64,000 nt of DNA from an uncultured Paraglaciecola sp. (GCF_943787955.1 NZ_CALSOK010000012.1:2619-66618); one strand, 5' to 3'. Numbered from the stretch's first letter, positions 3,192 to 44,559 are shown. Numbers and translations: made by a program. Notes: a model not told the origin generated them from the letters alone.

Positions 3192-4061
3192 CTAAATTCC
3201 ATCACCAAATTCATGTAAACCACATTCTCTTTTTAATCCGAAGAAACGAGTATCTTGTTCATTCATACCTTCTTCCAAAGAGCGAGTACTGTGCCAATCA
3301 CCTATGGATACATAACCTTTTTCCCACAAAGGATGGTACGGCAGATTATGTTTTTTTAAATATAAATGCACATCCTTGTTCGACCAATCAATAATAGGAT
3401 AAATCTTATACTGATTTTTCAACTGCTGCACAACAGGTAAGGTTTCTCGCATGTCAGACTGACTGCGGCGCAATCCAGCAAACCAACTTTTTATTTGCAG
3501 GTCGTTTAACGCTTTTTGCATTGGCTCAACTTTATTCAATGCATTGTATCTTTCTATACCTTCTAAGCCATGCTCCCACAATTTCCCCATACGGGCTTCT
3601 TGCCATGCAGAGGAAGTATCCGAGCGATAAACCTTGAGGTTAAGGTTGAGACGTTCTGTTAACTTATCAACAAACTGATAAGTTTCAGAAAACAAATAAC
3701 CTGTATCTGTTAGTACTACTGGTACACCAGGGTATTGCTGAGTAACCATATGTAACATCACAGCGGCTTGCGCACCAAAACTTGATGACAACATAAAGTT
3801 GTGAGGTAGGTGTTCTAAAGCCCAAGCAATACGTTGTGAAGCAGACTGTTTTTCTAAGGCGATATTAGTTTGCACCAATTCGTCGCCTGAAATACTTAGA
3901 TCTGCACTGTCTGCACTTTCTGTACTTTCTGTACTTTCTGCACTTTCTGCACTGTCTGAACTGTCTGTACTTTCTGTACTGTCTGAACTGTCTGTACTGT
4001 CTATACTGTCTATACTGTCTGTAATGACTATATTGTTAGATTGAGTAGCTTGGGTCATCAT
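3192..4061 (-). CDS. cysH: Phosphoadenosine phosphosulfate (PAPS) reductase with a repetitive acidic Ser-rich N-terminal insert
   Basis: Motifs [36 protein letters not shown] and KRECGLH. The likely start is ATG at 4061 or 4058, overlapping the cysI 3' end. Confidence 0.93.
3901..4017. repeat. 9-bp in-frame tandem repeat, 13 units (TCTGYACTK consensus on +)
   Basis: Read directly from the sequence. Encodes (D/E)S(I/T/S/A) x13 at the CysH N-terminus. Confidence 0.95.
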
Positions 4062-10576: not shown

Positions 10577-11236
10577 CTAAGCAACCTTTGAACGCAATGC
10601 TTCTAGCTCTTGCTCAATTTGACTCTCAGATTCAAGTTGATTGAACTGTGCATGTAAGCCTGTTGACTCATCCACTAAATCATAAGCGTCAACTTGTGAC
10701 TCTAGATCATCAATTCGGCGCTCATATTGCTCAAACCGGATAATTGCATCATCAATCTTCACTGAATGAGCTTTATTCTTAATGGTCATGCGCACGGCTA
10801 CCGAACGCTCTCTAATAATCAGAGATTTTTGTTTAGCTCGGGCTTCCACTAGTTTGTCTTGCAATTTGCCCATGTCAGCTTGTAATTTAGATAGCGATTC
10901 TTCAACCACATTTAGCTCATCAGTTAAAGCTGATAATTTTTGCTGACTATGGTGCTTTTCAACCAATGCGGCTCTAGCCAAATCTTCACGATCTTTCTCT
11001 ACCGCCAAGGCCGCCTTTGCCTGCCATGCATTGATCTGTTGTTGCAATTTGTCCACTTGGCGCTGTACCTGCTTTTTTTCAGCTAGGTGAGTGGCCGCCA
11101 CTGAGCGTAACTCCACTAAGGTTTCTTCCATTTCTTGGATCAGTAACTTAATCACTTTTGCAGGCTCTTCTGCCTTATCTAAGATGGCATTGATATTGGC
11201 TTGTATTATGTCTGACACTCTCGAAAACATACCCAT
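10577..11236 (-). CDS. pspA: Phage shock protein A (PspA/IM30 family)
   Basis: MGMFSRVSDIIQANINAILDKAEEP, coiled coil, REDLARAAL and FEQYERRID. Confidence 0.92.
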   Translation of the reverse strand: MGMFSRVSDIIQANINAILDKAEEPAKVIKLLIQEMEETLVELRSVAATHLAEKKQVQRQVDKLQQQINAWQAKAALAVEKDREDLARAALVEKHHSQQKLSALTDELNVVEESLSKLQADMGKLQDKLVEARAKQKSLIIRERSVAVRMTIKNKAHSVKIDDAIIRFEQYERRIDDLESQVDAYDLVDESTGLHAQFNQLESESQIEQELEALRSKVA

Positions 11237-11418: not shown

Positions 11419-11455
11419 TTAGTCAAAAAGACTAAGTAGTTAGCGAAAATCACAA
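11419..11455. promoter_or_regulatory. Two putative PspF upstream activating sites
   Basis: Palindrome TTAGTC-AAAAA-GACTAA (11419-11435) and AGTTAGCGAAAATCACAA (11438-11455), which resembles the E. coli pspA UAS. They lie about 100 bp upstream of the sigma-54 site. Confidence 0.55.
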
Positions 11456-11716
11456 TTGATATTTAATAGACTGTGAGCCCACAACTTACGACAAAGAAAA
11501 AGTGGTTAATAGAAACTAGTCACGATACCCAATATGTTTAGGCTGTTCTGATCATTCTGTGGATTTCTTGGTATAGAGCATCACCGCAATATGTTGAATG
11601 ACGCCTATAAACGATAAACAGTCCTACTATAAACATATGCCAGCAGTCCGCATCACGGCAAAAAGGGCCGTACGCGGTTGAAAATTTTGGGATGATTTTA
11701 TCTCATAAATATAAAA

Positions 11717-11871
11717 TTAGGCGAGGAACGGTCATTCGAGTAGTCGAAACCAGGTGTCTGCTTAGCCCAAGAAAGCGGACGTAGCTATTTATGGTGTTTT
11801 AGTCCCTTTGGAGCGAATAGCGGATCTTCAGCTTTATTGCTTTGATGGACGGATTCACGCGCAAAACGGTC
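11717..11871. repeat. Array A of degenerate 24-25 bp palindromes, about 46-bp period
   Basis: GTCTGCTTAGCCCAAGAAAGCGGAC (11756-11780), GTCCCTTTGGAGCGAATAGCGGATC (11802-11826), GACGGATTCACGCGCAAAACGGTC (11848-11871), and a half element ending at 11733. Confidence 0.7.
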
Positions 11872-12001
11872 ATCGAACTCGCTCATAACTATATCTCAAT
11901 ATGGCACATGGCGCATTACAGAACATCCCTATTTAACTTTAAATTAGTGGCCATATTCACCAAGCCACTAGTGTATATAATATTGACATATGGGTGAATT
12001 T

Positions 12002-13036
12002 TTAGCGTGATTTTTTATGTATTGAAAGTATATCTTCAATAACAGCGTATCCTGTTTCCAAGCGCCCAGCACCTGGACCAATTAAGGTAATATCACCTAG
12101 TAATTCTGTTGAATAAGTAATAGCATTTGTCGCGCCTTTAATTGATGCGAATGGATGTTCACTCGATACCATCTCAGGTTTAACTGATGCTAAGAACCCA
12201 TAGTTATGCTTTTCAATTGTTCCAATTAATTTCCAATGCTTCTTTAAAGAAGTGGCGTTAAAAATATCATTCTTTGTGATATGGCAAATGCCTTGACGCT
12301 CTATATCATCTAATGTAAGCGATAAATCCATTAAAAGATTCCCCAGAATAACTACTTTTGCAGCGGCATCATAACCCTCAACATCCCCTGTAGGATCTGC
12401 TTCAGCATAACCAAGTTCTTGTGCTTGTTTGAGTGCATTTTCATACCCTGCTCCTGAAGACATCTCATCTAATATATAATTTGTCGTGCCATTAAGAATC
12501 CCTTGGATTTTTGTTATTCCGGCAGCTAACACCATCTCATTACCTAAGTTTATTGCAGGAGTTCCGCTCATTACAGTGCCTTCAATGCCAATTTGAACAT
12601 TATTGCTTAATGCTATTTTACGAAGTTCAGGAAAATGTAAAGCCACCGGTCCTTTATTAGTCATAGAAACATGCATACCATTATTTAATGCCTGTTTAAT
12701 ATGACTTACTGCGGGTTCACCTGTTTGTAGATCAGTAAAAGCAAGCTCTACTAAAATATCAGCTCCACTTTTATCAATCGTTTCAGTCGCATTCCAGCCA
12801 GTGATGGGAGCCGAAGTACTTTTTAGATCTCCATGCTTTTCTAGATCAGATAATAATACTTCAGGGTCCAAACCCTTAGGGTTATAAAGACTTCCTTTAT
12901 ACAAGTCACATATCGCTACGATGCTTAAATGAATACCAAACTTTTCTATTAACAGTTGTTTTTTATCACTAATAATTTTAGTTAGGCCTTGACCAACATT
13001 CCCAAAACCGATTATTGCTAATGTGTATGTTTTCAT
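12002..13036 (-). CDS. Homoserine dehydrogenase (short form, no ACT domain)
   Basis: IIGFGNVG Rossmann motif, MTNKGP, GILNGTTNYIL, GYAEADPTGDVEGYD and GPGAGRLETG. Confidence 0.92.
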   Translation of the reverse strand: MKTYTLAIIGFGNVGQGLTKIISDKKQLLIEKFGIHLSIVAICDLYKGSLYNPKGLDPEVLLSDLEKHGDLKSTSAPITGWNATETIDKSGADILVELAFTDLQTGEPAVSHIKQALNNGMHVSMTNKGPVALHFPELRKIALSNNVQIGIEGTVMSGTPAINLGNEMVLAAGITKIQGILNGTTNYILDEMSSGAGYENALKQAQELGYAEADPTGDVEGYDAAAKVVILGNLLMDLSLTLDDIERQGICHITKNDIFNATSLKKHWKLIGTIEKHNYGFLASVKPEMVSSEHPFASIKGATNAITYSTELLGDITLIGPGAGRLETGYAVIEDILSIHKKSR

Positions 13037-13088
13037 TATGTTCTTCCTAAGTTAACTCTTTAAAATGTTGAATGATTGTTCGATGGCG

Positions 13089-14525
13089 TTACTTTCGTAA
13101 ATTAAAACAATAAGTTTTTATGTCGGTCATTTCTTTAACAGCATTCATAACACCTTCTCGGCCAACACCTGATCCTTTGACTCCACCAAATGGCATTGCA
13201 TCAATGCGATAATCACTGCTGTCATTTATCATGACGCCACCACAATCCATTGAATCTGCAAGTTCAAACGCTAACTCAAGATCATTGGTAAATATTCCAG
13301 CTTGTAAGCCAAATTCAACATCATTTGCTTGAGCTATTGCCTCTTTTTTATCAGAAAATCGATACAACACAGTGATAGGTCCAAACACTTCTTCTTTGGC
13401 AATTAAGCAGTCACTGCTTACATTTGCAAAAACAGTAGGTTGAAAAAAATTTCCCTGTCTTTTCCCACCACACAGTAATGTGGAATTTTTCTCTAGGGCA
13501 TCTTTTACCATCGCTTCAACTTTAAGAGCAGCACGATTATTAATCATTGGACCCATCTGCGAAGATTCAGATAGTTTGTCGCCCATAGATATTTTGCTTG
13601 CACGCAAACAAAACTCTGAGGAAAACTGATCATATAGTTCATCTTGAATATAAATTCTTTGAACATGTAAACAGTTTTGGCCTGCTGCCCAGAAAGCACC
13701 ACTGACACATGCTTCCATTGCCATCTCAATATTTGCATCATTCATGACTATTACTGGACAGTTACTGCCAAGCTCCATTGATACTTTCTTTAAACCTACG
13801 TGACTTAGAATTCTTTCTCCGACACATTTTCCTCCAGTAAATGAAACCATATTAATGCGAGGATCTGATACGATCTTATCGCCTATATCTATTCCATATC
13901 CTGTAACCAAATTTAAGATACCTTTAGGTAAATTTGTTTTATTAAATAGCTCTACAAGCAGTTTTGCGACAAGAGGCGTCTCATGGTGAGGCAGGAGGAT
14001 TATTGAATTTCCTGCTGCTATAGCGGGACCAATTTTATGAGCGACTAAATTTAAAGGGTCATTGAAGGGAGTAATAGCTGCAACAACGCCAATAGGTATC
14101 CGACGATAATACCCAAACCTATTTTCAGAGCCGGGAGCTTGATCAAAAGCAATAGTTTCTCCCGTTAAACGCCTCGCTTCTTCCGCGCTTATTCGTATGG
14201 TTTCCACACATCTAGAAACTTCTTTACGCGCTTCATTAATGGTTTTAATACCTTCACGAGCAATCATTTGAGCGAAGAATTCTTTTTGATTTCTTAAATT
14301 ATCAGCAACGTCATTAAGTACAGACATTCGTAAATGTGAAGACAGTTTTTTAGCTTTTTGGGCGCCTATCACTGCGGTCTCAATAATAGCGTCCACTTCA
14401 CTTAAAGAGTTGTTCACAACTGTTCCGACTAAACTGCCGTCTTCAGGGTTGAATACTTGTATCTGTGGTTGTGAGCTTTTTACATCTATAGCAGCGGAAG
14501 CAGACAAATTTTGTATTGCAGACAT
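13089..14525 (-). CDS. NAD(P)-dependent aldehyde dehydrogenase
   Basis: ITPFNDP, SFTGG, catalytic Glu (MELGSN) and Cys (GQNCLHVQR), EEVFGP, and MPFGGVKGSG. Confidence 0.93.
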   Translation of the reverse strand: MSAIQNLSASAAIDVKSSQPQIQVFNPEDGSLVGTVVNNSLSEVDAIIETAVIGAQKAKKLSSHLRMSVLNDVADNLRNQKEFFAQMIAREGIKTINEARKEVSRCVETIRISAEEARRLTGETIAFDQAPGSENRFGYYRRIPIGVVAAITPFNDPLNLVAHKIGPAIAAGNSIILLPHHETPLVAKLLVELFNKTNLPKGILNLVTGYGIDIGDKIVSDPRINMVSFTGGKCVGERILSHVGLKKVSMELGSNCPVIVMNDANIEMAMEACVSGAFWAAGQNCLHVQRIYIQDELYDQFSSEFCLRASKISMGDKLSESSQMGPMINNRAALKVEAMVKDALEKNSTLLCGGKRQGNFFQPTVFANVSSDCLIAKEEVFGPITVLYRFSDKKEAIAQANDVEFGLQAGIFTNDLELAFELADSMDCGGVMINDSSDYRIDAMPFGGVKGSGVGREGVMNAVKEMTDIKTYCFNLRK

Positions 14526-14683
14526 GGTGATATTCCTTTGTTATCTCTTTAGTGAATTATGGATAGTCTACCTAGCAGTAACGGTATACATCAGTCCTTA
14601 TATAAAGATAAGTGATTATTAATTCATTGTTTTTGTAAAATATTGATAGAATCACATCAGTAATTGCGAGGGAGTATTGAGTT

Positions 14684-15157
14684 GTGAAATTAAGTAAGCA
14701 AGATCTAAAAATATTGGAATTATTACAAATAGATGTAAAAACTTCTGTTGAGCGCCTTTCCGAAGAAGTAGGGTTATCGGCTGCAAGTATACAGCGACAC
14801 TTAAAGCGCTTAAGAGATAATAAAGTTATCGCTCAGGAAGTAGCAATAATATCGCCTGACTCTGTAAATCAATCAATGACCTTTATCATATCTGTACAAC
14901 TAAATAGAAGTTATAACGATTGTTTTAATTATTTTAAAAACAAAGTAAAAAATAATAATAATATCCAGCAGTGTTACTACATAACGGGTGAGGCGGATTT
15001 CGTTCTGGTAGTGACAGCAAAAGATATGGAAAATTTTGAAGAGTTTACTCAATTATTTTTTTTTAGTGACATTGCTGTGCTTCACTTCAAAACATCTGTT
15101 GTTATGGGCAGAACAAAAGTTAGTTTAGCATTACCCCTGAATTGTGTAGATATATGA
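14684..15157 (+). CDS. Lrp/AsnC-family transcriptional regulator, divergent from the ALDH-hom operon
   Basis: N-terminal HTH (LSEEVGLSAASIQRHLKRL) and C-terminal QCYYITGEADFVL. Confidence 0.9.
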   Translation: MKLSKQDLKILELLQIDVKTSVERLSEEVGLSAASIQRHLKRLRDNKVIAQEVAIISPDSVNQSMTFIISVQLNRSYNDCFNYFKNKVKNNNNIQQCYYITGEADFVLVVTAKDMENFEEFTQLFFFSDIAVLHFKTSVVMGRTKVSLALPLNCVDI

Positions 15158-15391
15158 AGCATGTTTCTAACATCATGATAATAAAAAGAATATAGTTTCT
15201 TCTGGTGAGATTATGACAGACACAGATCTTGCTGCGAGTTGGTCTGCACTGATGTGACGGTCGCCTTATAAACCCAAGTTTGGAGTTTGTATAACAAAGG
15301 GCGTTAGCGAGTTAGTTTTCTAAGACGTAAAGGAGGTGATAGCACCTTAGGACTAATGCTCTAATTCATCAGGATTTTTAAAAAGGCCAAT

Positions 15392-15558
15392 GACCGCTCT
15401 GGTGGCTAACTTGCCGTAAAAAAATCAGAAAACATGGATTTTGTATGCCCGCTTATGGCACAAACTTCCCCATCAGGGTAAACGCTCGACCGTCTGCTAT
15501 TAGGCTCACAGCGGCCTGATTCAATTCCCAAATGACTGCTTAGCCTAAGTAAACGGAC
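15392..15558. repeat. Array B of degenerate 24-25 bp palindromes (four elements)
   Basis: GACCGCTCTGGTGGCTAACTTGCC (15392), GCCCGCTTATGGCACAAACTTCCC (15447), GTCTGCTATTAGGCTCACAGCGGCC (15492) and GACTGCTTAGCCTAAGTAAACGGAC (15534). The last matches the 11756 element at 21/25 positions. Confidence 0.7.
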
Positions 15559-15603
15559 TGTGGTGAAATACAATTTTTTGGTAATCTATCGCAGTAATAT
15601 GGA

Positions 15604-15675
15604 CATTAACGCTGCGCTCACCGGCAAGCTTTAAGCGCAGCGAGGAGCTTGTCCGAGTGAAGCGCCTTGTTAAAT
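15604..15675 (-). other. Integron attC site (72 bp)
   Basis: The minus strand reads ATTTAAC (R'', RYYYAAC)-AAGGCGCTTCACTCGGACAAGC...GCTTGCCGGTGAGCGCAGC-GTTAATG (R'). This is an imperfect palindrome with bulges. R'' is the exact complement of GTTAAAT at the cassette start. Confidence 0.88.
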
Positions 15676-16298
15676 TTTCCATGACCCTTTATAAACTCAT
15701 ACATGACAATCTCTTCGGCTAAATATTGTCGAAGTTGTTTTTCGAGTTCATGGTCTAAAGAAGTAGAAAACTTAGGTGATATATTTTCATGTGGTATCTC
15801 GATTTCTCGCCCTATTTTTTTAGATAGAAAGTCAGCGACTAAGTCTAGCCTATTCATTGGCATTATATGATCTACGCCAATCTCACCATTAGTCATAGTT
15901 AGGAAGTCGTATTGACTTGCCAAATTTGCAAATGGCTTCCTTTTTCCTTCAGAAATATATTCTTTGATATATTCATTGTAACTCATGCCACCGGTGTAAT
16001 TTCGATGATTTGGATGATTCGGGTTTTTAATTTCATCTCTAGTTTTATAGCGATACCTGCTTTCCATCCTTTCTAAAGGATCTCTTATCAAACTGAAAGA
16101 TTCTATCTCTACATTTGGAAGCAGTTTCTTGTGCGCAGAAAATATTGTTTCAGAGAATAATTGAGCATTAATGTGTTTTAATTTGGGATGTCCCGAAAAA
16201 TTTATATTGCAAAATGGTTGTATAGCCTTTTCAATAGATGTTGATGCACACTTCGGCATGCACAAAAAAGCAATACCATACTTAGTAGACATCTGCAT
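15618..16298 (-). CDS. Integron gene cassette ORF: sulfotransferase family 2-like protein
   Basis: PKCASTS (5'-PAPS-binding-like) and IRDPLERMESRY (3'-PB-like) motifs. The ORF starts 16 bp after the attI crossover and its last codons run through attC. Confidence 0.65.
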   Translation of the reverse strand: MQMSTKYGIAFLCMPKCASTSIEKAIQPFCNINFSGHPKLKHINAQLFSETIFSAHKKLLPNVEIESFSLIRDPLERMESRYRYKTRDEIKNPNHPNHRNYTGGMSYNEYIKEYISEGKRKPFANLASQYDFLTMTNGEIGVDHIMPMNRLDLVADFLSKKIGREIEIPHENISPKFSTSLDHELEKQLRQYLAEEIVMYEFIKGHGKFNKALHSDKLLAALKACR

Positions 16299-16313
16299 AA
16301 CACGTATCCTGTA

Positions 16314-16345
16314 ATTTAACGCTTATTATCGAGCATGTCGTATAT
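16314..16345 (-). other. Integron attI site
   Basis: The minus strand reads ...CATGCTCGATAATAAGC-GTTAAAT, giving a GTTRRRY core at 16320-16314. It lies between the divergent intI and the first cassette. Confidence 0.75.
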
Positions 16346-16626
16346 GTAACTTCTCGATTTGATTTTTATTTTCGTCAATTTCAGTACTTACCTATTAATT
16401 TTTATGTGATATTTTTCACTTTCATGCCAGCAAGACCGCAAAGAATTGAAAAGCAAAAGGAGACCTGACTTTAACGCGACTTTTCTGCTTCCTATTAAAA
16501 ACTATGTGAATAATATTTTCCATAATTAAATGAATAACTTAGCGTATTTTTGAAAAACAAAACGAGACCTAAGGAATTTACATAATAGGAAGCAATCTTG
16601 GCATTATTTTAAAATATGCATTATAT

Positions 16627-16643
16627 CTGTATATAAAAAACAG
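16627..16643. promoter_or_regulatory. LexA (SOS) box of intI, one base too long
   Basis: CTGTATATAAAAAACAG is CTG-N11-CAG, against the CTG-N10-CAG consensus. It lies 23 bp upstream of the intI ATG. Confidence 0.7.
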
Positions 16644-17536
16644 TATGATTTGCAGAGGGTAATATTATGTCAAAGTCACCTTTTATAGAATATGTTCGAA
16701 CTATTTTGCGAACCAAAAGGTATAGCATAAAAACTGAAAAGGCCTACCTTCATTGGATTAGGCGATTTATTTATTTCAACGGCAAGCGTCACCCTAAAGA
16801 TATCGGTGAACTAGAGGTTGAACAGTTTTTATCACATCTTGCCATAGCGCTAAAAGTCTCGCCAACGACTCAAAATCAAGCCTTGTGCGCCATCATTTTT
16901 ATGTATCGTCATGTGCTTAATATGGACTTGACTAATATGTCCTTTAAATTTGCTAAGACGCCTGTCCGTGTACCTGAAGTATTAAGTCATAATGATGCGA
17001 TTGCTGTAATCGATAAATTACGAGGGGTTCATCATACTATTGGGACATTAATGTATGGCGCGGGATTTCGTATATCTGAGGTGCTGAAGCTGCGCGTAAA
17101 GGATTTTGATTTTGAACGAAATACTATTTTTATTTTTCATTCAAAAGGCCAAAAAGACCGTGTAACCATGTTTCCAGAATTGACTAAGACCGAGATTACT
17201 AAACAAATTCAAAAAGTGGAGTGTATTCACCAAAAGGACATTGATGAAGAGTATGGACTGTCATCACTACCACCTGCTCTAATTCGTAAATATGGGAAAG
17301 CCGCTACTAACTTATCTTGGCAATATATATTTCCTTCAACTACACGATGTGTCCCCCTTACGATGGCTATGTATGCCGGCATCACCTTCACCAAACTGGG
17401 TTTCGAAAGGCCTTAAAGAAAGCAGTGCAAGAAGCAGGCATTTTAAAACGGGTTACATCACATACCTTTCGTAAGCGTCCGGTGATCCACGCCTAGCAGT
17501 CATCCATTATTCATTCGAAAATACTTCCTCACTGTA

Positions 17537-17845
17537 ATGGGAGGTATTATGAAGCATAAAACACTAGATGAATGGCAGAAATTGATAAGCCAACAACAAA
17601 CGAGTGGGTTAGCCATTGTTGATTTCTGTAAAGAGCACAGAGTTAGCACATCAAGTTTTTATAAATTTCGTGGGCGATTACAACAGCAAGTTAACCCGCC
17701 TCGTTTTGTAAAAGCTAGCAAGTCTGCTATCGACGCGACTATTCAACCATCAGTATCTGTCAGATTGGGCGAGGTTTCGTTATCTTTTTCGACGTCTTGC
17801 GAGCCTGTTTGGTTGGCAAGTTTCGTTAAGGCACTGCAATCATGA
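17537..17845 (+). CDS. tnpA: IS66 accessory protein TnpA
   Basis: WQKLISQQQTSGLAIVDFC...SSFYKFR HTH; first ORF of the IS. Confidence 0.88.
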   Translation: MGGIMKHKTLDEWQKLISQQQTSGLAIVDFCKEHRVSTSSFYKFRGRLQQQVNPPRFVKASKSAIDATIQPSVSVRLGEVSLSFSTSCEPVWLASFVKALQS

Positions 17846-18192
17846 GAATGTTCGTTGAGCCAGATGACATTTATTTGCACCTTGAGCATGTTGATTTTAG
17901 AAAGTCGATTAATGGCTTGCTGGCGATTATCGAAAGTGAATTAACATTAAACGCATTCTCCGGTGCATTATTTATCTTCTGTAACAAAAAACAAGACAAA
18001 CTCAAACTCTTATACTGGGATAAAACCGGGTTTGCATTATGGTACAAACGGTTGGAGAAACAACGCTTCAAATGGCCTAAGTGTGGCCAACTCAAACACA
18101 CTAATTTGAGTGAGCAGCAGTTAACATGGTTGCTCGGTGGCTATGATGTCGTTGGACATCGCAGCTTGGATTACACGGCCTCTGGGTTATAA
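17842..18192 (+). CDS. tnpB: IS66 accessory protein TnpB
   Basis: VDFRKSINGL, KLLYWDKTGFALWYKRLEK. Confidence 0.93.
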   Translation: MRMFVEPDDIYLHLEHVDFRKSINGLLAIIESELTLNAFSGALFIFCNKKQDKLKLLYWDKTGFALWYKRLEKQRFKWPKCGQLKHTNLSEQQLTWLLGGYDVVGHRSLDYTASGL

Positions 18193-18269
18193 CGTACGAT
18201 CATAAGTAGCATTTAACGATCACGTTTTAATCTAATTGAAAACAGTCACTTAGGGTTATAATAAGTGAC

Positions 18270-19766
18270 ATGAATAAAGCCCAACTACGCCAACAAATAG
18301 CCGAGCTTAGCAAGCAAGTTGAACGATTAGAAAGTCGCAATCAGTTTCTTGAAGAGCAGTTTCGTCTTGCCCAACAAAAACAATTTGGGGCGAGTAGCGA
18401 AGGTCACCCTGGTCAAGGTGAATTGTTTAATGAAGCAGAAGAGCTGGTTGCTGAAACACCTGTCGAAAAAGAAGACATCAGCTACACACGCAATAAACCT
18501 AAGCGTAAACCATTACCAAAAACATTACCTCGTGAAGTGGTTATCCATGATATTGCACAGGAAGATAAAGTCTGTGCTTGCTGTAACAATGAATTGCACA
18601 AGATAGGTGAAGACAAGACTGAAAAGCTTGAATTCATCCCTGCTCAAGTTAAAGTGATAGAGCATGTTCGTCCTAAGTATGCGTGTCGTGTATGTGAAAA
18701 GGACGGCATTAGCAATCACATCAAACAAGCACCGGTGCCACCTTCAGTTATCCCTAAAGGTTATGCGACACCAAGCTTACTTAGTCAGGTAATCACCAGT
18801 AAATATCAATTTGGGTTGCCACTGTATCGTCAAGAAGCGATGTTCAAACAATACGGTATTGAACTGAGCCGCAAAACTATGGCCGATTGGATGTTGAGGT
18901 GCGCTGACTTGCTCACACCGCTATATGACCATTTACACGAATTGATACTTAAGCAAGGCGTCATTGCCGCTGATGAAACCACCTTAAAAGTCGTCAGCGA
19001 AGATAAAGCGAAATGCTATATGTGGGTGTATACCTCAGGCGCCGACTCACCTGAAGGGAAATTACCCAATACTGACATCCCAAATATCGTGCTGTACGAC
19101 TATCAATCGAGTCGCGCGGGTCAATGTGCCGTGGATTATTTACAGGGTTACAACGGGTATCTACAAGTGGATGGCTATGCGGGTTACCACAAAACCCAAG
19201 CGACACTCGCAGGCTGTTGGGCCCATGCGAGACGTAAATTCGTTGAAGCCAAAACCGCACAGGGCAAAAAATCTAGCGGCAGAGCCGATTGGGCACTTAA
19301 CCATATTCAAAAGCTGTATCGTATTGAAACGCAAATAAAAGCGAGTGCACCTGATAACAGGCGGAAAGTAAGGCAGGAAAAGAGCACTATATTGCTCAAA
19401 CAGTTCGAAGCGTGGCTGATAAAATCAGAGTCGCAGGTATTGGCAAAAAGCAAATTAGGCGAAGCCATCACCTACTGCTTAAATCAGTGGAGTAAACTCA
19501 ACACTTACACCCAATATGGTCACCTGAACATCGATAATAACCGCGCTGAGCGCGCGATAAAACCCTTCGTCATAGGCAGAAAGAACTGGTTGTTTAGTCA
19601 AACGGCCAAAGGCGCTAAGGCCAGTGCCATACTGTACAGCATTATAGAAACTGCAAAGGCAAACGGACTAACGCCGTTCGACTATATGATGCATTTACTT
19701 GAACAAGTCTCGGTTCAAAACACCGATATCGAGCCACTGCTACCATGGCGATTTGCTAAAGACTAG
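18270..19766 (+). CDS. tnpC: IS66 DDE transposase TnpC
   Basis: Zn finger CACC...[47 protein letters not shown]. Confidence 0.96.
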
Positions 19767-19990
19767 GTGGGATTGCCGGACGCTTACTACCTTTCGGCAT
19801 AGTTTCGCAACAAGATTGCTTGAAACAGGACATGACATCAGAGTCGTGCAAGAATTACTGGGGCATGATGATGTAAAAACCACGCAAATTTACACCCACG
19901 TTTTAGGTAAGCATAAATCTGGAGCAATAAGTCCGACGGATGTGAGATGAAAGACTTAAAATATTAGCACACCTATTAGCCAGACTCTTA

Positions 19991-20021
19991 GACCGCCTGA
20001 TTTTAGGCTCACAGCGGCCTG
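19991..20021 (+). repeat. 31-bp direct repeat of 15488-15518 containing one palindrome
   Basis: GACCGCCTGATTTTAGGCTCACAGCGGCCTG versus GACCGTCTGCTATTAGGCTCACAGCGGCCTG, 28/31 identical. Confidence 0.85.
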
Positions 20022-20107
20022 TCAGAGAACTTCTTTCTCAACGAATGCAGCACATTCGAGCCAGTCAGTTCTTGCTCATTAACTCAATAACAACTCTCTT
20101 TTTTCAC

Positions 20108-21052
20108 CTACTTTATCTCTGTGCTATTCGTGTCCTCGCCATTTGTAACTGTCATCGTTTTTGTGTCCCTGACATAGACCGTTTCGCGCAGCAATGCTGT
20201 GCGACCGATACAAGTCCCATGGCCGGGTGCAACGGGATTGTCCTGCATATATTTGATGAATACTTTGTCTGCGTGGCGACTTGCAACGACGTGATACTTG
20301 CCGTCTGACGTATCCAACAACGCCATAAAAGCATATTGCGGTTTGCAAATACGCGCAGCGACATTCAGGACTTCGTCCAGAACCGGGTTGAGTTCATGCG
20401 GGGATCGCGAAATAACGGCAAGGACATCAGATGTAGCAGTCTGATATGCTAGTGCTTCTTGTGTTTCGTGCAAAAACCGTGAATTTGCGATGGCAATGCT
20501 GGCTTGCTCGGCAAAAGTCTGGATCAACGCGATATGAGAGTGCAGCGGAGTATCAGCTTCCGGCCAGGCCCTAATGATCGAACCCCAGACTTTGCCATCG
20601 CTAAGTATCGGAACACCTACCATTTGGCTAAATCCAAATCTCCGAGCCGTCGCGTGATCAAGGTAAACTTCGGATTGTGCATCCAGAACACGAACCACTT
20701 TGCCAGTTTTGATCAGAACGGCCGAAATCGACTTTTCCAGTGTCGGCTGAGCCGGTCGCGACGTATGAAATTGATTGTATTCTTCGGTGAACCCGTAGCT
20801 GGAACAATAGTGATCCAAATCACTTTCATAGCGCCAGACCACACTAAATTGCTAACTACAAAGCTCAGTTGCGCTTTTTGCAATTGTGTCAAACACCTGC
20901 TGGATGTCGTTGGTTGACCTTTCGATGACGTGCAAAATTTCGACCATAGCCGCGGCTTGCGCGCGTTGGCTTGGCAGCTCAAGTTTCAGGTTTTTCACTT
21001 CCTGAATGAGTTTGATGATTGCCTTAGACTGTTTAATGGGGTCTGATTGCAT
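20108..21052 (-). pseudogene. Truncated multi-GAF-domain sensor protein
   Basis: Repeated GAF blocks (IQQVFDTIAKSATELC, QTFAEQASIAIANSRFLHETQEALAYQTATSDVLAVISRSP). There is an in-frame TAG at 20852-20854, a frameshift near 20160, and no output domain. Confidence 0.75.
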
Positions 21053-21283: not shown

Positions 21284-22066
21284 TCAGAACGATTTTTGGG
21301 CGCGGATGTGATGCGGGCAATGTTCACCGGTCTCCAAAGGCAGGATCATGGCGGCCCAAAGCTCTTCCATTTCTTGCATGTAACTGGCCCCATGGGCACG
21401 ATCAAATGCGTCCCGTTCTTTTCCCGTCATCAACAGAAATTCGTTCTTGGCCACCTCAAAATACCACGGATTGCGATTGCGCAGACCAAATTGGGTAAAG
21501 CCTGCGTACGAAAATGCACTTTCATAGCGAGTCGGGGAAGCCATCGCAAAGTCCAAATCTTCAAGTTTGATGTAAGCCTGCATTTCGGGAGACGGGGTGT
21601 TGTCATGCGAAATCAGCCAATCAGATGCCACAAACCAACCCCCCGGCACCAAAACACGAAAAACTTCCACGGCCAGAAATTCCTTGTCCGGAATGTGAAT
21701 GATTGCGTCCTTTGAAAACACGATATCAAAGGTAGCGTCAGTGAAATCAAGCGGTCCGGGTTCAACCTGCCGGATGGTGATGTTCTTGCCAAAACCGGAT
21801 TGATCGGCACGGGCACGCGCTGCGGTACAGACGGGTTCTTCGACATCAATGCCTGTTACATGCGCCGCACTATGGTCGCGCAAAAGGGTGACAGCTATTG
21901 CCCCTGTGCCGCAGCCAATGTCCAGAACCCGTTTGCCTTTCAGATCCAAACCTTCAACAACGCGCGCAACTTTTTCAGGGCCGCCGGGCGACAAATAACC
22001 TTCGCCCCAGATCGCTTCGAGAAAAGAAGTAAGTTCGCTATCATAATGCAATTCGATATCAGCCAT
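21284..22066 (-). CDS. Class I SAM-dependent methyltransferase, phosphoethanolamine N-methyltransferase-like
   Basis: VLDIGCGTG motif [40 protein letters not shown]. Confidence 0.75.
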
Positions 22067-22146
22067 TTCAGATGTCCTCTATTTGTAGGGAATTGATATA
22101 GGCTTCGACAAAACGTTGCGCATAAACTTCCATCGACACAAAGGAA

Positions 22147-23215
22147 TATAGGTAAAATAAAACGTCATTTTTCCTAAAATTAAATTACATGATGCCTTAT
22201 ATTTTCCATATTGACATCTATTTCATATTCTTAAGGGAGTGAAATTCGGCTATTTTTCGTTTATTAATCAACTGTTTCTACGTAATTCAGAATTCAAGAC
22301 AAGCGCTTCCCGCTGTTGTGCAAACCAGCTCTGAATACTGCTTATGATGATGAACGGCTTTTATTCAAACAGACTTATCTGAGGCGGTGCTCGACTTTGT
22401 GGGGGCAATAATTCAACGACTTCGTCATTTTTTGTATTCAGGTGACTGAGTATCTTTTGGATCACCAATGGATGTGCAAATCGGCTTTACTGCCGATTTG
22501 TCAATGCTCGCTATAACCTTAACTGCACCAGCGCGATGCTCACAGGTTTCAATGTCGATGTTAAAAACCCGTTTAAGTCTTTGCGCCTAGGTCATCGATT
22601 AGTGTTTTGTGCCCGTGTTTTTTCCTGCCCTGTCGGCAAGGCTTGTTTAGTCTTATTTCGTAAAGACGGCGTTATTGTCACGCGGTGCCGACTGTTTGGT
22701 GGAGGGCCACCCCGTGGAGGGCCACCCCGTGGAGGGCCACCCCGCACAAATACGCCATGTACTAATTCATCAGGAATGAATTAAGCCAACCAGAGGTTGC
22801 CCGTAGGGTGAGAAACAGGAACGTTTCACATCTAAGCGCCTCAGATTAACGCGGGGTCTGGGTACCAAGGCCGCTAAACGGGCAATAAATTCCAGCGGCT
22901 CAAAGTGCACATGACTGTGCCGGTCACCGGTGGTGCCGTCACGGTAGGGTGTTTTTAGTTTGGAACGCACCTTAGGGTAAGTCGTTATTGCCAACCTTTT
23001 TTATGATACCCCAGAGCGGGACTCTCTTCACAATAAGCAACGGCACAGCCTTTCGAGTTTACCCCTATCCTGTGAGTTGCTCATGACACCTGCATGGAGA
23101 CTGAAGCCTGCCACATTTGCGGCACAGCCTGACGCAAGCCCCTGCTCTGCCATAGGTGCAATGTTTTTTTCGTCCTTGCTGTTTGCCTGTAGCGATGCGA
23201 TAAGTAATGGATTAC
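22147..23215 (-). mobile_element. Degenerate IS91/ISCR-family (Y2 HUH rolling-circle) transposase 3' half plus oriIS-like end, copy 1
   Basis: Minus-strand fragments in order: SITYRIATGKQQGRK, AGFSLHAGV..KLERLCR, SRSGVS*KRLAIT, LKTPYRDGTT..FEPLEFIARLAALVPRPRVNL, HGVF..PNSRHR, MT*AQRLKRVFNIDIETC. The element ends GACGTTTTATTTTACCTATA. Confidence 0.85.
22699..22743. repeat. 15-bp tandem repeat GTGGAGGGCCACCCC x3
   Basis: Read directly. It is an in-frame insertion within the transposase HGVF-APNS motif. Confidence 0.95.
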
Positions 23216-29058: not shown

Positions 29059-30064
29059 ATGACAGCCAATAACAACAACGGCAGTAATCTTCAGTGGATT
29101 TTACCCTTTGTATTACTTACCGCCTTGTTGCTAGTAGAGTTACTGGTTGTGGGCCTGCGGGTGGATGCGCAAACTCTCGCAAGTAAGGACGGTGTGCTGG
29201 CATTGGTGCTGTCGAATATGGGCCACCTTCACGATTTATACTTGTCTTTGTGGTGGCCTTTCTTAATTTATTGACACCTCGTTTTAAGGTTCACATCCAG
29301 CTATTTTGGCGAGCCAGGGCCAGCGTAAAAAGTGGTATTGGTTGCTGTTGCAATGCATTGCTTTTATTTTCTCACCATTGAAATATTTGCAGGCAGTGCT
29401 GTAACGAGCGATTCGGCTTTGCTGATTGCTCTGGGATGGTTTTCGCGGCTGCTGTTATCGCCGTGTGCTCCCTTTTATATTGGGGCCGCTCAGTTTTTGG
29501 AATATTTTTTTAGCAAAAGAAAAATCAGCTTTGCTTGTAGCGGCCGCTATTGGTGTATTGACTTTTTTTGTCGCCAATTCTAACAGTTTTGGTATCCTTT
29601 GGACAAGATGACCTCCACAGTTTCTCAATGGTTTTTGGAGCTGATGTTTGATCGGGTTCATGTTGATAAAGTTAATTTAGCCCTTAGCGCGGAAGATTTT
29701 ATCGTCATCATTGCGCCAAGTTGTCCCGGGTATGAGGGCATAGGATTAATCTCCATATTTACAGGCCTTTATCCTTGGGTATTTAAGCGGGAATTCCATT
29801 TCCCCCAAGCCTTCTTACTGTTTCCCATTGGCATTATTTCGGTCTGGGTATTAAACGCGCTGAGAATTCATCACTGATTGCGATGGGCGCTACCTTTTCG
29901 CCTAAAATTGCCTTGGAGTGTTTTCATGCACCGGCAGGGTGGATCTTCTTTACTGCGAAGGCTGTTGGCTTATTCTTGCTATCTCAATGTATCAAATATT
30001 TCTCTAATGAACACGTCGTTAAGGACATGCATTCTGATGATGTTGAACTGTCAACGAATTTGAG
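29059..30064 (+). pseudogene. Fragmented exosortase (resembles exosortase E of the VPEID-CTERM type), 3'-truncated
   Basis: Multi-TM fragments with IAPSCPGYEGIGL (catalytic Cys), VLNALRI and FHAPAGW. Several stops and frameshifts, cut at the oriIS-like end. The subfamily call is tentative. Confidence 0.65.
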
Positions 30065-30724
30065 TATAGGTAAAATAAAACGTCATTTTTCCTAAAATTA
30101 AATTCCATGATGCCTTATATTTTCCATATTGACATCTATTTCATATTCTTAAGGGAGTGAAATTCGGCTATTTTTCGTTTATTAATCAACTGTTTCTACT
30201 TAATTCAGAATTCAAGACAAGCGCTTCCCGCTGTTGTGCAAACCAGCTCTGAATACTGCTTATGATGATGAACGGCTTTTATTCAAACAGACTTATCTGA
30301 GGCGGTGCTCGACTTTGTGAGGGTAATAATTAAACGACTTCGTCATTTTTTGTATTCAGGTGACTGAGTATCTTTTGGATCACCAATGGATGTGCAAATC
30401 GGCTTTACTGCCGATTTGTCAATGCTCGCTATAACCTTAACTGCACCAGCGCGATGCTCACAGGTTTCAATGTCGATGTTAAAAACCCGTTTAAGTCTTT
30501 GCGCCTAGGTCATCGATTAGTGCTTTTGTGCCCGTGTTTTTTCCTGCCCTGTCGGCAAGGCTTGTTTAGTCTTATTTCGTAAAGACGGCGTTATTGTCAC
30601 GCGGTGCCGACTGTTTGGTGGAGGGCCACCCCGTGGAGGGCCACCCCGTGGAGGGCCACCCCGTGGAGGGCCACCCCGCACAAATACACCATGACTAATT
30701 CATCGGGAATGAATTAAGCCAACC
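30065..30724 (-). mobile_element. IS91/ISCR-family remnant, copy 2 (near-identical direct repeat of 22147-22791)
   Basis: Aligns with copy 1 from TATAGGTAAAATAAAACG to GAATTAAGCCAACC, with scattered substitutions. Carries the 15-bp repeat x4 (30618-30677). Cut on the right by IS3. Confidence 0.88.
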
Positions 30725-30787
30725 TGTTGTGGTTGAATTAACCGGACACTTCAATAAAGGATTATAATCCTGTTAATTGAGGTGAAT

Positions 30788-31075
30788 ATGACTAAACGAA
30801 CAAATAAACATTATCCCGCAGAATTTAAACAAGAAGCGGTCGCTCTGGTAATAGAGCAAGACTATCCAATCGTACAAGCTGCTGCATCTTTAGGTGTGAC
30901 AGACAAACTACTTTACAACTGGGTAGCTAAGCATAAGAAACAGGCACTAGGTGATGCATTATCTGGTGATGAACGGGCAGAGTTAATTCAGCTCAGGAAA
31001 GATAGTAAACGTCTACAAATGGAGCGTGAAATCCTAAAAAAGGCCAGTGCCTTCTTCGCGAAAGAAATGAAGTAA
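30788..31075 (+). CDS. IS3 transposase OrfA
   Basis: HYPAEFKQEAV HTH; ends LKKASAFFAKEMK. Confidence 0.9.
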   Translation: MTKRTNKHYPAEFKQEAVALVIEQDYPIVQAAASLGVTDKLLYNWVAKHKKQALGDALSGDERAELIQLRKDSKRLQMEREILKKASAFFAKEMK

Positions 31076-31113
31076 GATATTCTTTTATAAGTGAGCTTGA
31101 TGCGAAGTATCCG

Positions 31114-31944
31114 GTGTCAGTTGCTTGTAAAGTGATGGAAGTGAGTTCGTCAGCATACTACGCATGGCTAAAAAAACCTGGTGAACTCATTAGCGCTCAA
31201 ATGCTAAGACTGTATCGACGAGCCAAAGCATTATTCAAGGCAAGTCGAAACAGTTTAGGCAGCAGAGAGCTTGCTAAAGCACTACGCAAAGAAGGCTTTG
31301 AAATAACGCGGTATCGCGCCATTAAGTTAATGGAACGGCTTAAATTAGTTGTGACTCAGCGAATAGCTTATAAAGTGACAACCAAGCGCAAACACAGTGA
31401 TGCTGTGGCTGACAACTTGCTAAATATGAATTTCAATCCTGTTGGACCCAATCAAATTTGGGCGGGTGATGTGTCCTATTTAAAGACTGGTGAGGGCTGG
31501 TTGTACTTAGCCATTGTCATGGATTTGTATTCACGCCGGATTGTAGGTTGGCATATATCAAAACGCATGACGCGTGATTTGGTCGAGCAAGCACTGACAA
31601 AGGCTCATAATTTACGCAAACCACCAAAAGGTTTGGTGTTTCACAGTGACAGAGGCTCTCAGTACACGAGTAAAGGCTTTAGAAATCTACTGTCGCGATT
31701 AGAGTGTCGAGCTAGTATGGGAGATGTTGGAGCTTGCTGGGATAATGCTGTTGTGGAGCGCTTCTTTGGAAGTTTAAAGCATGATTGGTTGTTTAAAGTA
31801 CCGCAGCCCACTCGAACACATATGCGAGAAGATGTTGCTAGGTACATGAAATATTATAATGTTGAGCGACTACATTCAGCTAATTTGGATCAATCGCCAA
31901 TTGAATTTGAAAACTCCTTTAGAAAAGTGTCCGGTTGGACTTGA
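31114..31944 (+). CDS. IS3 transposase OrfB (DDE), probably expressed by -1 frameshift from OrfA
   Basis: WAGDVSYL, VFHSDRGSQY, CWDNAVVERFFGSLK. The -1 frame is open back across the orfA stop. Confidence 0.92.
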   Translation: MSVACKVMEVSSSAYYAWLKKPGELISAQMLRLYRRAKALFKASRNSLGSRELAKALRKEGFEITRYRAIKLMERLKLVVTQRIAYKVTTKRKHSDAVADNLLNMNFNPVGPNQIWAGDVSYLKTGEGWLYLAIVMDLYSRRIVGWHISKRMTRDLVEQALTKAHNLRKPPKGLVFHSDRGSQYTSKGFRNLLSRLECRASMGDVGACWDNAVVERFFGSLKHDWLFKVPQPTRTHMREDVARYMKYYNVERLHSANLDQSPIEFENSFRKVSGWT

Positions 31945-41361: not shown

Positions 41362-42081
41362 GAATTTTTCACGTTAATATAGTCGCTGATTTCGTCTGTT
41401 ACAAAAGTAAATTGAATTTTAAATCGATGAATTATTTAGTATTTTAAATATACCTGTTAAATAGAGGACATGCCACTTGTCAAAGCTTGCTTGGAAAGAT
41501 ATTCACACTGTGTTGCTTGATATGGACGGCACCTTACTCGACTTGCACTTCGATAATCATTTTTGGCTAGAACATATGCCCAAAAAATTAATGGAGAAAC
41601 ATGGCATGTCGTTATTAGCGGCCAAAGAGATGATGGCCATTGAGACTGAACAGGTCATGGGAACTTTGAGTTGGTATTGCTTAGATTTTTGGGCAGACAA
41701 ACTTGATGTCGATATTATGGGGGCTAAACGCGAGATGGAACACCTTATTAGTATACGTGAAGACAGCTTACCTTTTATTAATGCCTTAAAAACTTCAGGG
41801 CGAGACGTAATATTGGTCACTAATGCCCATCCTGACAGCTTATCATTAAAGGTAGAGCATACTCGACTAGACAACCATATCGACCAATTAATATCGACTC
41901 ACGAGTTCGCCGTCACCAAAGAATCGCAAGTTTTATGGCAAAAGCTTCAGGTAAAACTTGGTTTTAATCCGCAACACACACTATTTGTTGATGACAGTTT
42001 GGGCATACTAAAAGCGTAAGCGTCCGGTGATCCACGCCTAGCAGTCATCCATTATTCATTCGAAAATACTTCCTCACTGTA

Positions 42082-42390
42082 ATGGGAGGTATTATGAAGC
42101 ATAAAACACTAGATGAATGGCAGAAATTGATAAGCCAACAACAAACGAGTGGGTTAGCCATTGTTGATTTCTGTAAAGAGCACAGAGTTAGCACATCAAG
42201 TTTTTATAAATTTCGTGGGCGATTACAACAGCAAGTTAACCCGCCTCGTTTTGTAAAAGCTAGCAAGTCTGCTATCGACGCGACTATTCAACCATCAGTA
42301 TCTGTCAGATTGGGCGAGGTTTCGTTATCTTTTTCGACGTCTTGCGAGCCTGTTTGGTTGGCAAGTTTCGTTAAGGCACTGCAATCATGA
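42082..42390 (+). CDS. tnpA: IS66 TnpA
   Basis: Translation identical to 17537-17845. Confidence 0.88.
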   Translation: MGGIMKHKTLDEWQKLISQQQTSGLAIVDFCKEHRVSTSSFYKFRGRLQQQVNPPRFVKASKSAIDATIQPSVSVRLGEVSLSFSTSCEPVWLASFVKALQS

Positions 42391-42737
42391 GAATGTTCGT
42401 TGAGCCAGATGACATTTATTTGCACCTTGAGCATGTTGATTTTAGAAAGTCGATTAATGGCTTGCTGGCGATTATCGAAAGTGAATTAACATTAAACGCA
42501 TTCTCCGGTGCATTATTTATCTTCTGTAACAAAAAACAAGACAAACTCAAACTCTTATACTGGGATAAAACCGGGTTTGCATTATGGTACAAACGGTTGG
42601 AGAAACAACGCTTCAAATGGCCTAAGTGTGGCCAACTCAAACACACTAATTTGAGTGAGCAGCAGTTAACATGGTTGCTCGGTGGCTATGATGTCGTTGG
42701 ACATCGCAGCTTGGATTACACGGCCTCTGGGTTATAA
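42387..42737 (+). CDS. tnpB: IS66 TnpB
   Basis: Translation identical to 17842-18192. Confidence 0.93.
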   Translation: MRMFVEPDDIYLHLEHVDFRKSINGLLAIIESELTLNAFSGALFIFCNKKQDKLKLLYWDKTGFALWYKRLEKQRFKWPKCGQLKHTNLSEQQLTWLLGGYDVVGHRSLDYTASGL

Positions 42738-42814
42738 CGTACGATCATAAGTAGCATTTAACGATCACGTTTTAATCTAATTGAAAACAGTCACTTAGGG
42801 TTATAATAAGTGAC

Positions 42815-44311: not shown

Positions 44312-44559
44312 GTGGGATTGCCGGACGCTTACCTAAAAGCGGCTCAGGACTTCGGTATTAAACACCTTCTGGCTGTTAGCAACCCTGATAGTCAGCAACC
44401 TGTTAGAGAGATCAGCGAGTTTCCATCAATACAGGACTATCGTTATTTGCTGGACGATATAGAAGCGAACCCGTTTATTAATTGAATTGGGATTAGGACA
44501 AATTAATTAAACGCTCAATAACCATAAATCATAGTGATTGTAAAACTGTCTTAACTGTT

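Follow-up and report, generated by a model that had tools for sequence, protein, structure and literature searches.

What are the short palindrome-like elements at the borders of gene modules in an uncultured Paraglaciecola sp., and could they serve to exchange these modules? The DNA in question is a stretch of 64,000 nucleotides (nt; GCF_943787955.1, NZ_CALSOK010000012.1:2619-66618), hereafter the window, and all positions are counted from its first letter. It contains nine elements of 24-25 bp: four in an array A (A1 to A4), four in an array B (B1 to B4) and a single one, C. A first, sequence-only reading had taken them for periodic copies of one palindrome and for recombination sites at which passenger modules were gained and lost. 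All nine sequences are present where that reading had placed them. They do not form one periodic palindrome family, but four or five are genuine border sequences, specific to this lineage and located on either side of exchangeable modules, among them a whole small integron.

Two related pairs among nine elements

A2 (11756-11780) and B4 (15534-15558) share 21 of 25 bases, just as had been read from the sequence, and 22 of 26 when extended. B3 and C are identical at 22 of 25 positions, or at 27 of 31 when extended to 15488-15518 and 19991-20021, with the consensus GACCGyCTGnTnTTAGGCTCACAGCGGCCTG. With scores of 32 (A2 and B4) and 47 (B3 and C), the pairs lie far above the shuffle maxima of 24 and 26, and both also exceed the background of 25-mers in the window. 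For the remaining five elements, the best partner matched at only 14-15 of 25 positions (against window 25-mers, p~0.02 for A1 and A4 and p~0.003-0.005 for A3, B1 and B2, p-values that concern elements picked after the fact).

Could all nine nevertheless be copies of one palindrome of 24-25 bp that are set in periodic arrays and each act as a tyrosine-recombinase core site? Such core sites consist of two inverted 9-13-bp arms around a 6-8-bp spacer, and the arms GTCYGCT and AGCGGNC do recur in A2, B3, B4 and C. But these arms are 9-11 nt apart, not 8 as initially read, and their complementarity is at background. Palindromy exceeded background in A2 alone (p=0.027, marginal) and was at chance level in the other eight elements. 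No element folded better than its shuffles (z from -1.4 for A2, the best, to +1.0), and neither the whole B region nor the composite B site folded on either strand (z=+0.28 and -0.05). Tandem Repeats Finder detected no array at A or B, a search for dif-like (Xer) sites found none in the window, and the entities that are conserved are asymmetric and 78-120 nt long. With five of the nine elements not significantly related, this explanation is hardly credible, and we rejected a tyrosine-recombinase core or dif site. That is, periodicity, palindromy and core-site layout, all claimed initially, did not survive.

Conserved blocks and composite junctions

We scanned metagenomes for exact matches to the 19-mer common to B3 and C, which returned seven loci. 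Two were GC-rich chance matches, one (L020) was a strain variant of the window locus, and L024 was a locus with intI and C that lacks the insertion sequence IS66. L019, L023 and L025 represented new contexts. Together with a second integron of the same assembly (L031, see below), these loci define the following border features of the window:

11709-11733, + strand: A1, a degenerate core end (TTAGGCGAGGAACGGTC) followed by a linker ATTCGAG...; not a palindrome
11734-11755, + strand: linker R1-A, ATTCGAGTAGTCGAAACCAGGT, which joins the core end to the hairpin
11755-11780, + strand: A2, an imperfect hairpin with an 8-bp stem, opening block of the hom module's left end
11802-11826, + strand: A3 box, GGAGCGAATAGCGGATC, second left-end block
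11847-11871, + strand: A4, a weak block, 14/25 identical to A1
15441-15518, + strand: unit of ~78 nt, with B2 as its 5' part (L1), B3 as its 3' core and a sharp right edge after GGCCTG
15488-15518, + strand: B3 core, direct repeat of C
15519-15532, + strand: linker R1-B, ATTCAATTCCCAAA, kept in L019
15533-15558, + strand: B4, a block of the A2 type, outer end of the integron platform; does not fold
19991-20021, + strand: C core, direct repeat of B3, ~40 nt past the intI stop
20022-20049, + strand: 28 nt travelling with C, found in both integron copies and in the hybrid sites of L023 and L025

At array A, A1 matches the 3' half of the core at 14 of 17 pattern positions (three mismatches), and its end, AGGAACGGTC followed by ATTCGA, is kept in L023 at the equivalent junction. 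Linkers resembling R1-A precede the hairpin in L023, in L031 and at loose metagenome contig ends (...TAGCCGACC, then GTCTGC), while other metagenome contigs break at 11756, the left edge of A2. The A3 box (GAGCGAwwAnCnG) recurs at the same offset in L023 and L019, ~30 nt beyond the hairpin block. All three (A1, A2 and the A3 box) are thus kept in L023 and the latter two in L019 as well, at the same offsets throughout. The left junctions of three modules show linker, hairpin block and A3 box in fixed order despite unrelated cargo, namely hom in the window, an AFG1-like ATPase in L023 and an open reading frame (ORF) of no known function in L019. The A2/B4-type block therefore heads a conserved left end of ~95 nt that includes the A3 box (11734-11827 in our left-end hidden Markov model, HMM). 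At the right end, nhmmer recovered the unit in L019, L023 and L025 at E-values of 1e-23 to 1e-25, plus a diverged second copy in L019. Because A1, A2 and the A3 box, as well as B2 with B3, are kept across loci at the same offsets, the arrays are rows of different conserved blocks rather than copies of one palindrome. By eye, A4 resembles 11640-11663 and a block of L019; the corresponding BLAST match links L019 1764-1815 to window 11612-11663. B1 (15392-15416, + strand) is unsupported as an element, being 15/25 identical to B2, free of palindromy and not conserved in the other loci.

Right of the unit edge, only two kinds of sequence occur: an ATTC linker with an A2/B4-type block behind it (in window B, in L019 and at the diverged A site), or TCAGAGAACTT... 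leading into chromosomal flank (window C, L023, L024 and L025). The window accordingly has composite junctions at 11709-11827 (S_A) and 15441-15558 (S_B) and a half site at 19991-20021. Immediately before TTAGGC, an A stands where the ATTC linker follows and a T where the chromosomal-type flank follows, regardless of the left side. Exchanges would therefore fall left of the 19-nt identical block and not inside it.

Some other identities were considered for the blocks. A small protein-coding gene over the unit was dismissed after inspection of three frames in four loci, in which neither start nor frame was consistent and no codon-position bias showed. The idea that A2/B4 is B3/C inverted, as in paired repetitive extragenic palindromes or terminal inverted repeats, was rejected as well, since only the 7-mer AGCCTAA/TTAGGCT is common to both, which is not significant. 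The unit showed no significant structure, conserved structure or covariation. Rfam and tRNA/tmRNA searches over the elements and the unit gave no match, and a tRNA, tmRNA or known RNA family as an att target was rejected.

The blocks are confined to such borders, with none in about 140 kb of other DNA of this genome. In 673 kb of fetched DNA, much of it redundant, the HMMs of the unit and the left end hit only these border sites (including the B4-type ones). HMM and similarity scans found no border block in the other 56 kb of the window, so the initial statement that the core regions are free of them holds there, nor in ~86 kb of other DNA of the organism (L026, L027, L030, and L031 away from the integron) or in the relatives' loci. 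The exact 19-mer was absent from one genome each of 185,579 species save for two chance matches, and plasmid and viral collections held no match. An even scatter like that of repetitive extragenic palindromic (REP) sequences, named beforehand as a refutation, was hence not seen.

Modules differ between relatives at the same borders

For comparison we used the corresponding loci of three relatives (L011, which is P. psychrophila, L013 and L016). In all three, other DNA precedes pspA; homology to the window ends at ~11455-11603 and resumes only at 20047-20137. Window 11604-20049 is therefore accessory DNA in a variable spot, bounded in the relatives by pspA on one side and, on the other, by small ORFs that precede dus and recQ. 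P. psychrophila homology begins only at ~20047-20050, past the 28-nt stretch that travels with C. The accessory DNA includes a first cargo module, which is missing at the same locus in L011, L013 and L016, and is followed by a conserved flank:

11781-15440: cargo module 1, with hom (12002-13036, - strand), an aldehyde dehydrogenase gene (13089-14525, - strand) and an Lrp/AsnC regulator gene (14684-15157, + strand), assigned with Pfam
20050-20137, + strand: conserved chromosomal flank R2, 87.5% identical to L011 and 91-96% to L023, L024 and L025; in relatives it runs into the small ORFs, dus and recQ

Window 20108-20137, the final ~10 codons of a GAF-domain gene, lies inside the flank that leads to dus and recQ in L023, L024 and L025. 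At ~20137, the genome of the window has undergone a further rearrangement or insertion, and dus-recQ is outside the window.

The metagenomic loci display the same borders with other contents. L024 reads attI-intI-C-R2-dus-recQ, and L023 and L025 read unit-R2-dus-recQ with no integron, at right flanks that are ~96% identical; the junction therefore falls in the core. L023 and L025 each carry one hybrid site, composed of a B-type left flank, the core and a C-type right flank, a form also present in run X11. These loci carry other cargo on their left, and no fully naive site was found. In L023, counterparts of A1, A2 and A3 lie beside a fragment of the pspA upstream region and are followed by the AFG1-ATPase module and then by the unit; L023 thus holds different cargo between the same borders. 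L019 contains two units in direct orientation, 1.5 kb apart, around yet other cargo. In metagenome X20, the 31-mer at 15514-15544 reached a word depth 6-7 times that of its flanks and was joined to four or more different flank contexts, and the centre of the B junction is consequently multi-copy or multi-context in the population. Taken together, the comparative data support a role of the elements as module borders. The position of elements at module borders, proposed at the outset, is thereby upheld, with B3 and C as direct repeats around the integron and with relatives that differ there by presence or absence of modules.

These comparisons also bear on the idea that the blocks are ordinary cis-regulatory or protein-binding sequences of the neighbouring genes (operators, nucleoid-protein sites or small-RNA genes) whose border position is incidental. 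Half-site-like copies of the right-arm motif ARCGGNC do cluster at array A (three in 160 nt versus at most two in 60 Markov simulations, mildly unusual), blocks are located between convergent genes or upstream of pspA, and a metatranscriptome contig spans the B region. But the same blocks occur beside unrelated genes in L019, L023, L025 and L031, they are absent from the pspA upstream region of L011, L013 and L016, and no Rfam match, conserved structure or terminator was found with them. We consider this explanation very improbable.

One integron platform at two loci

The second module of the window is an integron platform with one cassette:

15559-15609, - strand: platform flank, between B4 and the last attC
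15610-16319, - strand: single integron cassette with a sulfotransferase gene (15618-16298; Pfam) and a true attC at ~15604-15675
16320-19950, + strand: attI and intI pseudogene (intI 16667-17469 and 19788-19950, with in-frame stops), with IS66 (17470-19787) inside

The true attC folds (z=-2.5), has the ends ATTTAAC...GTTAATG and is 60 nt from the B region. An attC nature of the blocks was rejected: they lack RYYYAAC/GTTRRRY ends, with no AAC on the cassette strand of 15440-15609 and no GTT on its + strand, and the composite B site folds at z~0, versus -2.5 for the true site. The platform flank directly adjoins attI in contigs without a cassette (joint 15612->16317). In metagenome contigs, 15612 is either joined to 16317 (platform without cassette) or followed by other cassettes. 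Cassette content thus varies in the population exactly at the attI/attC crossover, although intI is a pseudogene here.

Via the multi-copy IS66, a second integron was found in the same assembly (L031/L033/L035; L031 8990-13560 versus window 15536-20049). Its intI/attI is 99.8% identical to that of the window, its cassette encodes a ParE/ParD toxin-antitoxin pair, and its IS66 sits near the 3' end of intI, versus codon ~250 in the window. It has the same flanks: a C-like core (L031 9076-9106) and the same 28 nt past intI, and a B4-like block (L031 13501-13526) with the same ~50-nt flank past the last attC. Platform flank and B4 together match L031 13447-13523, which adjoins a different cassette, at 89.6% identity. 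In five integrons from related species (IntI 79-93% identical), likeness to the window is limited to attI-intI; they have none of the border blocks, and C is absent downstream of their intI. The blocks were therefore rejected as a generic part of this integron lineage. In L043 (IntI 88% identical), the DNA downstream of intI (1237-1363) is 80% identical to L023 8949-9075, left of the unit. This likeness takes in the first ~20 nt of the unit and is followed by a linker-like TTCGAAAG..., which hints at a former integron at this place in L023 and at units that can lack their middle part.

IS66 itself (tnpA/B/C) is present in two identical copies, at window 17470-19787 and 42015-44332, with a duplicated target of ~8-9 bp, and its word depth suggests about 7-8 copies per genome. 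An intI allele free of it occurs in L024 and in metagenome runs X20, X13 and X11. Contig L004 joins two IS66 contexts differently (an inversion or an assembly chimera). In a contig of run X16, the right end of IS66 abuts the middle of the B3 core (window 15505), which indicates an insertion in the core in part of the population.

Since the integron has the same two end types at each of its two unrelated loci, we asked whether the modules are non-autonomous transposon-like units, either Tn402-type with IRi/IRt or integron mobilization units flanked by miniature inverted-repeat transposable elements (MITEs), with a transposase encoded elsewhere. The left terminal repeat would then correspond to the A2/B4 block, and the right one to the B3/C core. 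The short left-end blocks at ~45-nt spacing recall multiple transposase-binding sites, and the AFG1 module of L023 ends with a significant 15-nt inverted repeat (p=0.002). In four of the five modules, though, the inverted relation of the end types is not significant (p=0.16-0.58). No target-site duplications flank any module, no transposase is associated, and the IS66, IS3 and IS91-like elements of the window have unrelated ends. We regard such units as improbable, and for a transposon with terminal inverted repeats, a MITE or a Tn402-like element the defining features are missing. Tn402-type class 1 integron platforms have IRi/IRt, and MITE-flanked integron mobilization units are likewise known. 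Like these, the intI-attI platform of the window has fixed sequences past the intI end and past the cassette array, at more than one locus; unlike them, it shows no significant terminal inverted repeats, 5-bp duplications, tni genes or likeness to IRi/IRt.

How modules might be exchanged

We tentatively favour a reading in which the blocks are the conserved ends of a small lineage-specific family of cargo modules, exchanged by conservative recombination at their borders. Modules would stack head to tail between the pspA promoter side and the flank leading to dus and recQ. Each would start with an A2/B4-type block, followed in cargo modules by the A3 box ~30 nt later, and would end with the unit of ~78 nt, in which the B3/C core takes up the final 19-31 nt. 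The right end of one module, a short linker and the left end of the next would together form a composite junction of ~120 nt, and the outermost module, the integron platform, would end in half site C. Gain, loss and swapping of modules would most simply come about through a crossover in the shared core or immediately to its left, much as happens at the att sites of integrative elements accreted in tandem. A trans-acting enzyme would be required, one that the window does not encode and that is unlikely to be IntI. Four features of the locus led us to this choice: direct core repeats around a module, complete-looking inner sites with a core-only outer half site, cargo that lacks a recombinase, and presence or absence in relatives. 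As this is what att-like conservative recombination with tandem accretion would leave, we take it as the best explanation.

Several observations weigh against it. No recombinase is linked to the sites, with intI broken and none among the genes of the other modules. Assembled contigs of public runs, which hide rare forms, contained no circle, excised form or precise deletion. Neither dyad symmetry nor folding of the elements is significant, and the relatives compared are different lineages, not isogenic strains. At the outer junction of the second integron, the core is at best badly diverged, and a search for its empty site via PhoD neighbours recovered one junction only, in a rearranged locus, and no clean empty site. 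Identity between the two integron copies is 99.8% in the centre and 90-94% at the ends, which suggests gene conversion rather than one clean move. Finally, similarity breaks at several positions (in the core, at the hairpin left edge and within B4), a pattern that fits repeated homologous exchange too.

This leads to a serious rival that we judge quite possible, if not our first choice. Here the blocks would be low-copy lineage-specific intergenic repeats (decayed MITE- or REP-like sequences or a duplicated flank) that have no dedicated enzyme and recombine in a RecA-dependent or slipped manner. Such repeats would recur at the edges of accessory DNA, where their short homology may let intervening DNA be deleted, duplicated or swapped. 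The different breakpoints and the uneven identity of the integron copies speak for it, as does the failure to find a recombinase, target duplication or terminal inverted repeats. In addition, one way to read window C is as the product of a deletion that joined an intI-proximal core-like sequence (L043: GTCCGCTATAGG) to a unit core, and the IS66 inside the B3 core in one population indicates that the core is not essential there. Yet the identical stretch is only 19 nt long, a poor RecA substrate, and the marker in the hybrid site of L023 and L025 fits exchange to the left of this stretch, not within it. Left-end blocks at fixed offsets in three modules with unrelated cargo suggest selection on an organised site, and copies are found only at module borders.

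Conservative recombination at module ends thus stays our preferred, tentative account. The sequence-only reading had suggested testing for enrichment near intI, xerC-like or IS91 genes, but a link to a recombinase found no backing: intI is a pseudogene, Xer or dif-like sites are missing, and the IS91-like end is unrelated in sequence. As for its proposal that the elements mark spots of gain and loss, presence or absence of modules and the swap of cargo in relatives support it in part, but neither an excised circle nor a target duplication nor a precise repeated crossover was observed. That recombination takes place at the elements at all, that it is site-specific and where the crossover lies are thus inferred. 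Going further, one may imagine a capture-and-stack system above the integron, for multi-gene modules and the whole intI-attI platform, with left ends of ~95 nt and right ends of ~78 nt. A dedicated putative recombinase would then stack modules at composite ~120-nt sites in marine Alteromonadaceae. We think this unlikely.

Comparison with known systems

The elements behave most like the att junctions of accreted integrative or cis-mobilizable elements. Att sites flank tandemly accreted integrative elements and integrase-less cis-mobilizable elements (CIMEs), for example CIMEs beside ICESt1 and ICESt3 in Streptococcus thermophilus and the tycheposon arrays in Prochlorococcus islands. As in these systems, modules of the window are flanked by direct repeats of a short core, follow each other in series at one chromosomal spot and have no recombinase of their own. 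Internal junctions look complete, the outermost one, C, is hybrid, with the core only, and relatives have a single site or other cargo. Direct core repeats are clear around the integron (B3 and C, 27/31) and weaker around the hom module (A2 and B4, 22/26; A1, 14/17 to the core 3' half). Unlike those systems, the window contains no integrase, tRNA or known target gene, and no excised form was observed. Its site is ~120 nt long, asymmetric and unrelated to known att sites, and one module is itself an integron platform.

With REP sequences, bacterial interspersed mosaic elements and REP doublets forming hairpins (REPINs), the elements have in common that they are short, imperfectly palindromic, extragenic, lineage-specific and sometimes paired. 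They differ in being low-copy and not scattered and in having no stable hairpin. REP and REPIN identities were rejected on these grounds (no scattered copies in the window, L026, L027 and L030; fold z from -1.4 to +1.0). No gene for a REP-associated tyrosine transposase (IS200/IS605-like) was present among the Pfam-scanned ORFs of the window (roughly 3-31 kb), a scan that left out the remaining ORFs and the rest of the genome.

Integron cassettes resemble the modules in having a conserved site at one end and in being stacked in one orientation, here beside a true integron, but the modules comprise several genes, and the integron itself is part of one of them. The Xer (pdif) modules of Acinetobacter plasmids are small cargo units bounded by short recombination sites and shuffled between replicons. 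The small cargo modules of the window are likewise bounded by short sites; they lack a 28-bp XerC/XerD-type site, are chromosomal, and have direct rather than alternating borders. Clustered regularly interspaced short palindromic repeats (CRISPR) were rejected, since there is no tandem array, the blocks differ and no cas gene is among the annotated ORFs, and so were intrinsic terminators, as a terminator search found no terminator-like site at A, B or C. The initial exclusion of CRISPR, attC and terminators was therefore correct. A literature search on Paraglaciecola integrons yielded nothing relevant.

Neighbouring genes and other features of the locus

The source organism is a Paraglaciecola species: its PspA shares 89% identity with P. 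psychrophila PspA, and Paraglaciecola accounts for most of the named matches. It is common in marine metagenomes, where the unchanged hom protein occurred in 76 blocks of the collection with a constant arrangement throughout. To the right of pspA follow array A, hom, the aldehyde dehydrogenase and Lrp-type regulator genes, array B, and attC with the sulfotransferase cassette; beyond the cassette lie attI, the intI pseudogene split by IS66, element C and the GAF-domain gene. To the left of array A lie:

cysH/I/J, DUF2333, a PCuAC-domain gene, then pspA (10577-11236, - strand)

At the cysI/cysH junction, window 3901-4023 consists of 13.7 tandem copies of TCTGTACTG, a stretch of ~125 nt that is absent in relatives. 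The cysH ORF of the window encodes 316 aa versus about 250 aa in relatives. A methyltransferase (window 21284-22066) matches the PADLOC model 'mad2' (E 1e-19). Apart from it, PADLOC gave no defence-system match among the module genes tested, and we rejected a defence-island nature of the cargo.

A 602-bp repeat (98.8%) occurs at window 22144-22744 and 30062-30663 and ends in 3-4 tandem copies of GTGGAGGGCCACCCC. Its first copy adjoins a remnant of an IS91-family (Y2) transposase (22770-22994, - strand), and the second is followed by an IS3-family element (30782-31944). Fragments of this repeat lie near the unit in L023 and L025. An IS91-like rolling-circle end as the mover of the modules was rejected, because the repeat, though near these units, is unrelated to them in sequence.

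Implications

Chromosomal integrons are usually treated as sedentary. Here, a single genome contains one integron platform at two loci, both times with the same flanks of non-integron DNA, and close relatives differ in whether they have the platform at a defined junction. Recombination may be carried out by a site-specific enzyme, as we tentatively prefer, or by homologous exchange between repeated borders, a serious if somewhat less favoured rival. Should the flanks prove to be genuine recombination sites, they would account for the relocation of whole integrons and small metabolic modules in abundant marine bacteria without plasmids or transposases, and they would constitute a new class of site to scan for in flexible genomic islands. 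Should they only be short repeats that feed homologous exchange, the locus would still illustrate cleanly, in a natural setting, how a variable region is structured by tiny repeats.

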